Below are positions 61,006-63,570 of a stretch of 64,000 bases of DNA, in pieces (positions within the stretch are counted from its first letter, which is position 1; every line of letters begins with the position of its first letter). The position numbers and the translations under genes were made by a program. The DNA lies in assembly GCA_013204395.1 (NCBI GenBank), contig JABMNZ010000026.1, forward strand, positions 13,421 through 77,420, written 5' to 3'. A model generated the notes under the pieces. It was not told the origin of the DNA. It saw nothing but the letters and a program-made list of their open reading frames with translations, and did not search any database. The stretch is from Parcubacteria group bacterium. Lineage in GTDB: Bacteria > Patescibacteriota > Patescibacteriia > UBA9934 > GWF2-40-263.

Positions 61006-61674
61006 ATGAATACTCCTAAACTTGTTGGATTAGATTTTGATGGCGTTGTTGTAGCAGGATCGAATCAAGCTTACTTTGATGCGTACCACATGGCCCTTGA
61101 GGCCGTGGGTGTGAAGCTGGATCCAAAGGTGGAACATGAGCGAATCATTCAAGGATGGGGGAGCGGTTGCATTGAACAGCTGGAGATTATTCTGGCCGAG
61201 CATCCAGATAAGGTTGAACAAGCTGGTGTGGTTTGGAATGAGCATGTTGAGTCAGAAGCTTTTTGGGAGAAGGTTTCCATTATCAAGGGGTGCAAGGAGG
61301 CGATAGAGAGGATGTCTCGCATTGTGCCTGTGGTGGTTGTTAGTGGAACGCGCGTGCATCACATAGAAGCGCTCCTGAAGGAGGGTGGCATCCAGGGGGT
61401 ATCAGCTATATACTCTTCTTATGACGTGGCGTCTGAACTAAAGAAACCTCACCCTCACACCCTTCAGCTCGCTTTGGAGAAATTCAATGTGGTCCCAGAA
61501 GATACAATTTACGTCGGTGACATGGTCAACGATATAGTCATGACTCGCGCAGCAGGTGCGAGGCCCGTGGCCGTGCTGACCGGGGAGCTGGATACCCCCA
61601 CGGCAGAGTCAATGGAGGTTGAGTTTATAGGAGGGGATTTGTTGGCTGTTGCGAACCAGTATTTTCCACAGTAG
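61006..61674 (+). CDS. HAD-family hydrolase
   Basis: DFDGVV, SG, KPHP, YVGDMVND. Confidence 0.9.
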   Translation: MNTPKLVGLDFDGVVVAGSNQAYFDAYHMALEAVGVKLDPKVEHERIIQGWGSGCIEQLEIILAEHPDKVEQAGVVWNEHVESEAFWEKVSIIKGCKEAIERMSRIVPVVVVSGTRVHHIEALLKEGGIQGVSAIYSSYDVASELKKPHPHTLQLALEKFNVVPEDTIYVGDMVNDIVMTRAAGARPVAVLTGELDTPTAESMEVEFIGGDLLAVANQYFPQ

Positions 61675-61698
61675 TCCCTTTTATTCACATCCTAAGCC

Positions 61699-61727
61699 TT
61701 GACCAGTAAACGTTTCAGTGCTGTAAT
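61699..61727 (+). promoter_or_regulatory. sigma70-type promoter for the intergenic RNA
   Basis: TTGACC-17 bp-TGTAAT with TG extension; predicted TSS ~61733. Confidence 0.55.
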
Positions 61728-61732
61728 AGAAG

Positions 61733-62045
61733 TGGATGATAAGCTAGAAGATAAAAAGATAATCCCCCTACGTTATAAATACGTTGGGGGATTTGTGTTT
61801 TGAGTTGTTGGAACCGTGGGCCCGGCTTGGTGCGTCTTTTGGCTTATCATCCAAGAAGATTGGGGTTCGAAACCCCACGGGTCCACGGTTTTAACGGCTT
61901 AAGATACGTCGATGCATAGAATTGTGTTTCCACACAAGATTTTGTGTTTGTTAAGTTACAAACGAAACATACGACGGCCGTCGTATAAAGCGTCGTGAAG
62001 ATGTTGGGTCACTTGTTACTGGCCGTACCGTACAGATGACGTATA
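61733..62045 (+). ncRNA. Unassigned structured RNA containing a tRNA-like domain (61818-61885)
   Basis: Acceptor GGGCCCG/CGGGTCC-A, T arm TGGGG-TTCGAAA-CCCCA, no full D arm; acceptor helix extended by 18 bp; extra flanking domains. Confidence 0.65.
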
Positions 62046-62056
62046 ATGTCGTTGGT

Positions 62057-62791
62057 ATGAATCGTGAGTATAAAATAAGGCTAGATAAGGAGTATGTTGC
62101 TCACGGTGTTTTTTCTGGTTCAGTAAAAAAGCCCTTGGTGATAATTGTTCATGGACTTGGTACGGGTATTACAGAGGGGTTGTATGAGCAGGCGCAAAGA
62201 TGGTTTACAGAAAACGGTTATGCGACCTATTTGTTTGGTCTTTACGGTTGGCAAAAAGATGCGCGACAATTAATCAACTGTACACTAGAAATACATTCAG
62301 CAGATCTCGATAAGGTGGTAGAGCATTTCCGTCGCAAGGGGATTAATAAGATCTACGCTGTTGGTCATAGTTTTGGAGGGCCAACAATATTACGTTCAAA
62401 AAAACAACGATTCGATGCAGTTGCGGTGTGGGACCCTTCGTACGATCTTTCTTTTACAAAAAAAAGTTACGGTATGCCCGGAGGAGAATACGTGAACCAA
62501 CTGGATGGATATCTTATGCCCTGGGGGATAAATGTTTTGATAGGGCGAGCTATGGCTGAAGAGTCAGATCAACTTGATTGGGCTGCAATTCCTAAAACGT
62601 TTCATGTCCCACTCAAGATCATTGTTGCTGGTGACGGGGTCTTGGTGTCTGGTTGTCAGAAATATTTTGCTTCTGCGAACAAGCCAAAACAGCTTTCTGT
62701 TCTGAAAGGAGCAACTCACTTTTTTAATGATTCACAAAAGATGCGTGAGAGATTGTTTAAACTAACGAGTAAGTGGTTCGAGAAGTTCTAG
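62057..62791 (+). CDS. Alpha/beta hydrolase
   Basis: VHGL, GHSFGG, AGD, GATHFF. Confidence 0.88.
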   Translation: MNREYKIRLDKEYVAHGVFSGSVKKPLVIIVHGLGTGITEGLYEQAQRWFTENGYATYLFGLYGWQKDARQLINCTLEIHSADLDKVVEHFRRKGINKIYAVGHSFGGPTILRSKKQRFDAVAVWDPSYDLSFTKKSYGMPGGEYVNQLDGYLMPWGINVLIGRAMAEESDQLDWAAIPKTFHVPLKIIVAGDGVLVSGCQKYFASANKPKQLSVLKGATHFFNDSQKMRERLFKLTSKWFEKF

Positions 62792-62793
62792 GT

Positions 62794-63570
62794 ATGTCCG
62801 TCCTCTATCAAACAACTGGAATTGTGCTGTCGCGCCGGGATCATAAGGAGGTAGATCGGTGGTACAGCGTTTTTACCCCCGACCGTGGGAAGGTCGAGTT
62901 TTTGGCGCGTGGAGGACACAAGCCGTTGGCGAAACTCACTCCCCACCTTGAGTCCGTTGCTGTTGTGGATCTTTTGTTGGTTTACGGACGGCACTATCAA
63001 ACCGTTGCCGGGGTAGATCGACGGAGGGCTTATGAGGGCGTGCGGACAGATCTTTCTCGACAGGTGCTCGCGTACAATGCCTTGCATCTGGTAGACATTG
63101 GCACGCGAGCTGACGAGGCAGATCCCTCCATTTACAGGTTAATCGAACAGTGGCTCGAGTTTCTCGATCAGGACGTAACGATTACTGCAGAGAGGGCAGG
63201 ATTCCTCCTTGGTGGATTTGCCCTGAAACTTCTTGGTCTAGTTGGGTATCACCCCGAGCTTCGTGAGTGTCTTGGGTGTCGGCTAGCGATAGGGGCAGGT
63301 CAATATCGATGGCATGGTCTAAGAGGAGGGGTGGTGTGTTCTGGGTGCACAGATAAAGACCAAGAGCAATGGTTTTCCGCACGTACAATGACCGATGAGG
63401 CCCTCAAATTGGTCCGTTTTGCCCTCTCAGAGGGCTTTGACGCTCAACTGCGCCCACATCTGTCTGGAGAGCATTTAACGGGCTTTCACGAGGCGACAGA
63501 ATCTCTCATGATTTCACACTTCCCAACTATCCCCGCCAGCTCATTGAGGGGGGCCTGTAGGGTGTGTTAA
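62794..63570 (+). CDS. recO: DNA repair protein RecO
   Basis: GIVL......E.DR....FT...GK....ARG..K..KL; G..PEL..C..C...GGVVC..C. Confidence 0.93.
   Translation: MSVLYQTTGIVLSRRDHKEVDRWYSVFTPDRGKVEFLARGGHKPLAKLTPHLESVAVVDLLLVYGRHYQTVAGVDRRRAYEGVRTDLSRQVLAYNALHLVDIGTRADEADPSIYRLIEQWLEFLDQDVTITAERAGFLLGGFALKLLGLVGYHPELRECLGCRLAIGAGQYRWHGLRGGVVCSGCTDKDQEQWFSARTMTDEALKLVRFALSEGFDAQLRPHLSGEHLTGFHEATESLMISHFPTIPASSLRGACRVC

Follow-up and report, generated by a model that had tools for sequence, protein, structure and literature searches.

Between two hydrolase genes in the 64,000-nt stretch of Parcubacteria group DNA analysed here (the window), we identified two adjacent small RNA genes, one for a 68-nt D-armless tRNA-like RNA that combines an alanine acceptor with an aspartate anticodon, and one for a predicted antisense RNA complementary to its anticodon-like arm. 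The pairing of tRNA gene and antisense gene is established by covariation and stands even without toxicity. Judging from sequence comparisons, the two genes probably constitute a toxin-antitoxin system made of RNA alone: left uncovered by the antisense RNA, the anticodon of the tRNA would direct alanine to aspartate codons. Covariation, the conserved elbow, the hybrid identity, an anticodon-covering partner and a patchy, multi-copy spread support this reading. We see about an even chance for the wider proposal that such modules are widespread all-RNA addiction or defence elements of bacteria, archaea and phages, in which an alanine-charged tRNA toxin would recode Asp, Gly, Val or Ile codons as alanine, an antisense antitoxin would mask its anticodon, and the toxin of Patescibacteria would be a D-armless tRNA that still decodes on the bacterial ribosome. 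We rate the tRNA-antisense module as categorically new. An initial annotation of the locus had proposed an undescribed D-armless tRNA-like RNA with the alanine identity set, which our results support, and had missed the aspartate anticodon on the alanine acceptor.

All elements of the module lie on the forward strand. A predicted sigma-70-type promoter at 61699..61727 (-35 TTGACC, 17-nt spacer, -10 TGTAAT), already proposed in the initial annotation, is present in the sequence at the position relative to the antisense segment that is typical of the family, though it is not among the listings of a consensus promoter scan. It would drive a ~68-nt antisense small RNA, the likely antitoxin, with predicted ends at 61733 and 61801. 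The first 21 nt of this RNA are unpaired in the fold, and its antisense segment (61733..61752) forms, as had been claimed, 20 pairs (three of them G-U) with 61834-61853, a stretch that comprises the anticodon loop and the 5' strand of the arm. The RNA closes with an intrinsic-terminator-like hairpin and a U-rich run (61760..61801 in the fold). The whole region had originally been taken for one ~310-nt RNA; the hairpin at 61761-61793 and its U-rich run resemble instead the terminator end of a short RNA. A 5' leader (61800..61817) and a 3' trailer (61885..61902) flank the tRNA-like RNA (61818..61885, the likely toxin) and prolong its acceptor helix by 18 pairs, as annotated, six of which are G-U. 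The trailer masks the site where CCA addition would be needed after the predicted processing. Both-side changes in this leader-trailer helix were found in seven homologues, and at least 7 of 10 pairs form in 52 of 104 D-armless copies.

The acceptor GGGCCCG/CGGGUCC (61818-61824 with 61878-61884) contains G3:U70, and A73 at 61885 is followed by CGG, so that CCA is not encoded; this part of the annotation was confirmed base by base. The D arm is missing, as described, and its place is taken by a linker with the elbow GG, although the linker measures 9 nt rather than the reported 10 nt if G61834 pairs with U61860. The anticodon-like arm consists of 7+2 pairs with one bulged A and is closed by an 8-nt loop at 61843-61850, and the T arm (61861-61877) is canonical; loop and T arm were both correctly described from the start. 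In a tRNA register borrowed from cloverleaf relatives with a 7-nt loop, U33 falls at 61845, the anticodon AUC, which reads the Asp codon GAU, at 61846-61848, and A37 at 61849. Compared with shuffles, the folding z-score was -6.79 for 61690-62060 and -7.48 for 61800-61902. The multibranch 3' domain that had been proposed for 61904-62044 fared less well: its closing pairs (61904-61910 with 62038-62044) exist, but the domain folds no better than shuffles (z -1.6), is unmatched in relatives and holds a palindromic REP-like repeat (61958..61993, no strand assigned). This repeat lies outside the module, occurs at five intergenic places in the genome (contigs C19, C24 twice, C25 and C27) and is absent from homologous loci. 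Contigs from one sequencing run (X1), possibly the source of the assembly, span the stretch with zero differences, and contigs from a second run (X2) miss the element; these data say nothing about expression.

The genes on either side are not part of the module. Upstream lies a HAD-family hydrolase gene (61006..61674, +, PF00702), and downstream an alpha/beta hydrolase gene (62036..62791, +, PF12146) is followed by recO (62773-63570, RecO family match) and, from 63583, by a gene for which asnS is the best family. A same-genus genome (G001) has the order HAD gene, phosphoribosyltransferase-like ORF (which we take to be hpt), recO and asnS, and the RNA module is absent from it. At the corresponding locus of this genome (L464), the phosphoribosyltransferase-like gene separates the HAD gene from recO, whereas the matching interval of the window (compared over 61675-62791) contains the RNA module and the alpha/beta hydrolase gene.

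Class membership was assessed with ARAGORN, which made no call in the window, and with Rfam, where the element scored below threshold both for mascRNA (31.3 against a cut-off of 42.5 bits) and for tRNA (RF00005; 27 against 29 bits). Neither an ordinary tRNA, nor a known Rfam family, nor an unconserved pairing, outcomes that by the initial annotation would speak against it, was found. Lacking a D stem, the element falls short of the tRNA gathering score and of the four-arm cloverleaf, whereas its cloverleaf relatives reach both. It keeps the 7-pair acceptor, the T arm and the 18-55 and 19-56 elbow. The 18-55 pair is the elbow contact of tRNA and was tested by covariation; the 19-56 pair is conserved and unvaried. 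In bacteria, alanine identity is given as A73, G2-C71 and G3:U70, while aspartate identity needs G73 (Table 1 in the available text of PMC9976931), and G3:U70 is described as sufficient for AlaRS in the available text of PMC11415595. The window element has the complete alanine set and departs from the tRNA-Asp set (G73, G34, U35, C36, C38) with A73 and A34.

In a BLAST search over 60 relatives, six genomes gave homologues, all of them confined to the tRNA part. The seven aligned copies had 95.5% of cells paired and both-side changes in 20 of 32 pairs, a value reached by none of 500 shuffles, with the consensus structure drawn from the same seven sequences so that the shuffle controls lean in its favour. 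The homologue search and covariation test suggested in the initial annotation thus yielded a family with covarying helices. A model built from the seven copies was run on 151 genomes of the order and scored at least 50 bits at 40 places in 30 of them, seeds included; some genomes have several copies and the same-genus genome has none. Pattern scans of species genomes gave at least 121 loci and those of viral contigs 14, and the record titles of the listed pattern matches name many Patescibacteria groups, Acidobacteria, Dehalococcoidia, Woesearchaeota and Nitrosopumilus. A phylum-wide model search gave a hit at E 1e-8 in 1 of 150 other genomes, a result that is no frequency estimate, because scoring was confined to 28 candidates per genome, with an order-biased model, and the pattern scans found many other Patescibacteria. 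No family match was obtained in the plasmid collection, a point against the toxin-antitoxin reading. Family forms range from D-armless to full cloverleaf, and the cloverleaf relatives, which share the hybrid identity, score as tRNA (36.6-68 bits).

The elbow covaries across the family. In the 80 classifiable copies among 103 short ones, we counted 58 G18/U55 and 21 A18/G55 combinations, no A18/U55 and a single G18/G55, the last in the copy with a T-loop insertion. This copy (G006, L012:1384-1560, - strand) carries an 87-nt repeat-like insertion in the T loop and retains its partner, and a near-identical copy without the insertion is present in G131. The 51 model copies (54 matches minus two ordinary tRNA-Ala and one deleted copy) have G3:U70 plus A73 in 46 cases and a purine at position 34 and A37 in all 51, with the loop consensus N-Y-Y-R-Y-Y-A-N; their anticodons are GUC (24), AUC (22), GCC (2), GCU (2) and ACC (1). 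The pattern-derived copies, 129 of the 180 considered below, were preselected for G3:U70, A73 and RUC and are no test of those features. CCA is encoded in 45 of these 180 copies among the matches listed. Since GUC, GCC and GAC are one change away from the Ala anticodon GGC, the family may well descend from tRNA-Ala, as its sequences suggest. The closest phage matches of one cloverleaf member are tRNA-Ala genes, and six of the seven acceptor pairs of 61818-61885 are the same as in the host tRNA-Ala(GGC). Cloverleaf copies with 8-nt loops were observed inside tRNA clusters (L084 of G044, L078, L081, L114 and L115); their upstream antisense segment spans the loop and the 3' side of the stem, and they stand midway between normal tRNA and D-armless copies.

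The antisense partner was assessed in 180 distinct copies among the matches listed (51 from the model, 117 from genome patterns and 12 viral, some with short flanks). A same-strand partner with an antisense score of at least 12 lay within 200 nt in 128 of them, compared with 15 of 500 swapped pairs. A further 21 copies had an opposite-strand partner, and in many of these a promoter and a terminator of matching orientation can be recognized. Copies with a partner within 200 nt on either strand number 149 of 180 among the matches listed, leaving 31 without one by this score. The 128 same-strand partners among the matches listed cover the anticodon in 126 cases and lie downstream of the tRNA-like copy in 110 and upstream in 18; the layout of the window (antisense segment, terminator, then tRNA) is that of the latter 18. 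In 91 of the 128 listed loci, TTGAC precedes the antisense segment by 28-44 nt (mode 35), against 79 of 2560 random places, and a terminator follows the segment in 107 of 127 listed loci, against 16 of 256 background places, giving a median RNA of 66 nt. By a strict scan, only 19 of 108 downstream-layout loci have a terminator ahead of the tRNA, so a damping of toxin expression is no general feature. No antisense partner was found for any of the 31 ordinary tRNAs of the host genome. Within eight multi-copy genomes, the strongest duplex of every one of the 22 copies is that with its own partner (mean -29.6 versus -15.1 kcal/mol), a comparison in which partners were picked by best pairing and for which the swapped-pair test is the fair control. 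In four cloverleaf loci (the Nitrosopumilus records L128, L129 and L136, and L200), a TATA-like box ~26 nt upstream of the antisense gene replaces the -35/-10 elements; L128 adjoins an archaeal-type RqcH gene.

These counts bear on the built-in conformational switch that had been proposed for the locus. In cis, the cloverleaf form (-76.2 kcal/mol) is favoured over the switch form (-64.5 kcal/mol) by 11.7 kcal/mol, and the antisense gene varies in both side and strand, and we rejected the cis switch on both grounds. Binding of the short RNA in trans to the mature tRNA form has a computed gain of ~15 kcal/mol. The antisense stretch is, from its sequence, a separate ~65-nt RNA gene predicted to act in trans, and it changes along with its tRNA partner. 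Hence the antisense lock on the anticodon-like arm recognized in the initial annotation was upheld, while its placement within the same RNA was not, since the small RNA is predicted to have its own promoter and terminator and may lie on either side or strand. A CreT-like action on the host tRNA-Asp was also considered and rejected: the window antisense segment forms a duplex of -30.5 kcal/mol with the tRNA-like element and of -8.9 kcal/mol with host tRNA-Asp, and the element is the genome's best seed complement.

The miscoding toxin-antitoxin reading would work as follows, given the order of promoter, antisense segment, terminator and tRNA within a long leader-trailer helix. Most transcripts would end at the terminator and supply the ~68-nt antisense RNA in excess, and occasional read-through would give the tRNA precursor. 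Cleavage by RNase P, trimming of the 3' end and the action of the CCA-adding enzyme would then free a stable 68-nt tRNA, at a slow pace owing to the extended helix. AlaRS ignores the anticodon, and by these identity rules it would charge the 68-nt tRNA with alanine. The host genome (1.10 Mb, 97.7% complete) carries alaS, RNase P RNA and a CCA/poly(A) polymerase-family gene, and its tRNA set includes two ordinary tRNA-Ala and one tRNA-Asp with G73. If the L-shape is kept, as the elbow covariation suggests, EF-Tu would be expected to deliver the charged tRNA to GAU and GAC codons, which make up 6.2% of host codons in long frames. The outcome would be Asp-to-Ala errors, or frameshifts and stalls caused by the 8-nt loop. 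The antisense RNA is predicted to open the arm and hide the anticodon. Should transcription stop or the locus be lost, the short RNA would disappear before the tRNA, which would then halt growth in the manner of addiction or abortive-infection modules. According to the available text of PMC5389517, missense allo-tRNAs arrested and killed E. coli, and six variants were inactive in translation.

The relation between anticodon and partner offered a natural control. A loop-free scan gave 229 distinct matches, of which 143 with the full 7-pair acceptor were kept and 86 were dropped. An anticodon-covering partner accompanies 2 of 49 copies with an Ala anticodon and 38 of 94 with another anticodon, a contrast to be read with the caveat that most Ala-anticodon rows come from another phage scaffold, one that has a small D hairpin, and that kin are not independent; seven rows called as GCA appear on visual inspection to be UGC read in a different register, which would sharpen it. 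The partner-bearing copies have mostly GUC, AUC, GCC, ACC, GAC and GAU. Among non-Ala anticodons, the partner was found in 32 of 51 copies starting with a purine and in 6 of 43 starting with a pyrimidine. The remaining 37 of these 43 have no partner within 200 nt, and the wider flanks of the 35 loci inspected showed none evident except two already counted. A mismatched anticodon therefore need not have a partner, and this counts against the toxin-antitoxin reading.

This control weighs on an unlikely alternative, a toxin-antitoxin pair whose D-armless RNA takes no part in decoding and would instead jam the A site or drain AlaRS, EF-Tu or RNase P until the antisense RNA unfolds it. With an 8-nt loop, no D stem and no variable region, the D-armless forms may fail to decode, the elbow and acceptor are strictly kept, and two translation-inactive allo-tRNA variants still killed cells (available text of PMC5389517). 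Yet copies with an Ala anticodon would drain the same factors and seldom have a partner, and a non-decoding RNA leaves unexplained an anticodon that is constrained at positions 34 and 37 in every model copy and covered by nearly every antisense partner among the matches listed.

We also hold it unlikely that the module serves regulated, useful mistranslation, with a stress-released tRNA that diversifies the proteome or slows growth and the antisense RNA as its switch. A natural mistranslating tRNA, tRNA-ProX, and protective effects of mistranslation are reported (available text of PMC11415595), many pyrimidine-34 copies are partnerless, and the same neighbour recurs at five Acidobacteria loci, a sign of vertical retention. 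However, no regulator or neighbour is common across groups, the module is absent from the same-genus genome, and gain, loss and several non-cross-reacting copies per genome fit selfish modules better.

RNase P processes the C4 and P4 CI antisense RNAs of phages. Like the family described here, these are tRNA-like processed RNAs with a complementary sequence nearby, and P4 CI RNA controls termination by an RNA factor (available text of PMC3632133). By analogy, the tRNA-shaped RNA could be the regulator and the antisense stretch its leader target, controlling termination before a downstream gene (itself or hydrolase-recO-asnS), an idea that we regard as improbable even though the target stands at the promoter start and a terminator follows it. 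The next ORF past the module runs in the opposite direction in 59 of the 128 listed loci, in the same direction in 34, and is absent in 35. The 91 of 93 downstream ORFs that were scanned belong to many unrelated families with none in common, the most frequent being radical SAM (five genes, from related Acidobacteria), and no Cas/CRISPR family was among them. These ORF directions and the gene order of the same-genus genome, which has HAD-hpt-recO-asnS without the module, led us to reject the leader function for hydrolase-recO-asnS that had been suggested initially. Overall, the spread is patchy and multi-copy, with unrelated neighbours. Moreover, 20 loci gave no C4 or IsrK match at the gathering score, no regulated downstream gene is seen in the family, and the alanine identity and anticodon that it keeps would be superfluous in such a regulator.

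The tRNA-like domain of tmRNA is D-armless and has G3:U70, an alanine acceptor and a T arm. The resemblance had suggested a split or minimal tmRNA, cut down to this domain and rescuing ribosomes with SmpB or replacing a lost tmRNA, which we now consider very improbable. Neither smpB nor tmRNA was found in the 97.7% complete host assembly or in G012, which may be due to assembly gaps or to true loss; smpB is present in 52 of 61 genomes, and five other early carriers have it. This check, proposed in the initial annotation, is favourable to a reduced tmRNA for these two genomes, but normal tmRNA is present in 4 of 5 carriers tested, and without SmpB no such action would be possible in the host. 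The family has no mRNA-like domain, coexists with normal tmRNA, and includes D-armed relatives that are full cloverleaves with tRNA anticodon loops, as well as copies in archaeal records; in the window the arm is closed by the 8-nt loop, and the locus is not among the RF00023 matches. Two ARAGORN tmRNA calls were rejected, one on L044 that spans two tandem copies of the element and one made at default settings on contig C19 that has no RF00023 support. Relaxed ARAGORN over the host genome gave only noise. A decayed tRNA with a chance inverted duplication, to which the sub-threshold tRNA score and one relative with a deleted copy might point, is refuted by the compensatory changes, the elbow covariation and the partner gene co-evolving with 149 of 180 copies among the matches listed, and retains a negligible probability. 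In the deleted copy (L082:239-299, +), the anticodon arm is entirely gone and a partner is lacking, as one would expect if the toxin had been inactivated.

Returning to the miscoding toxin with an antisense antitoxin, we compared it with known systems. The available text on TADB 3.0 (PMC10767807) lists creTA and SdsR-RyeA as the validated kinds of type VIII toxin-antitoxin systems. These resemble the module in consisting of adjacent small RNA genes, on either strand, with no protein; here both components are RNA, lie within 200 nt of each other in 149 of 180 listed copies and share no protein, and the toxin and antitoxin roles are predicted. In creTA, according to the text available, CreA represses transcription via CRISPR Cascade and CreT sequesters tRNA; the antitoxin is derived from a CRISPR repeat and lies beside cas genes, whereas the module's antitoxin is of another kind and is predicted to pair with an RNA arm. 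The SdsR and RyeA genes differ in overlapping on opposite strands. In the module, unlike both, a charged tRNA would act as the toxin, and a separate gene would supply the antitoxin, which is predicted to pair with the anticodon arm.

The allo-tRNAs (Mukai et al., PMC5389517) are, in the text available, similarly non-canonical, have Ser or Ala identity with foreign anticodons, are lethal when expressed, and sit near toxin-antitoxin loci and transposases. They differ in their 8/4 or 9/3 acceptor branches, compared with 7/5 and frequent loss of the D arm in the present family, and the word 'antisense' is absent from the main text of that paper. Likewise, tRNA-ProX of Streptomyces joins the acceptor of one amino acid to the anticodon of another, but it has proline identity, a full cloverleaf and no antisense partner described in the available text of PMC11415595. 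Three-armed tRNA folds are shared with D-armless mitochondrial tRNA-Ser and with mascRNA, for which the window element has a weak score. Such D-armless tRNAs can translate in mitochondria (available text of PMC7609411). However, they are eukaryotic or organellar, have cognate identity or do not decode, and lack an antisense gene.

Within a literature search that included few subscription journals and left aside the supplements of PMC5389517 (irregular tRNA polycistrons, which may hold related sequences), we found neither a description of the module nor any tRNA that is controlled by an antisense gene of its own or serves as toxin in a toxin-antitoxin system. If the miscoding reading is right, the module would add one more mechanism to the few all-RNA toxin-antitoxin systems and provide natural D-armless decoding tRNAs in bacteria, and many metagenome genes labelled tRNA-Asp, -Gly or -Val would be miscoding tRNAs. 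As the module is shorter than 250 bases and universal factors should suffice, it is directly testable in E. coli.

Two further kinds of tRNA-like genes were observed in the course of the scans. Many phages among the viral contigs (L344-L463; e.g. L350, L359 and L385) have a short, nearly always partnerless tRNA-Ala(UGC) with G3:U70, in which a tiny D hairpin is joined straight to the acceptor, making it a second non-canonical scaffold. Several partnerless copies with UAC or CCC anticodons (L394, L245, L264, L297, L302 and L356) often lie near or just before insertion-sequence transposases, IS1-like in L394 and IS1595 near L356, with similar ORF starts by eye in the others, as has been reported for allo-tRNAs.
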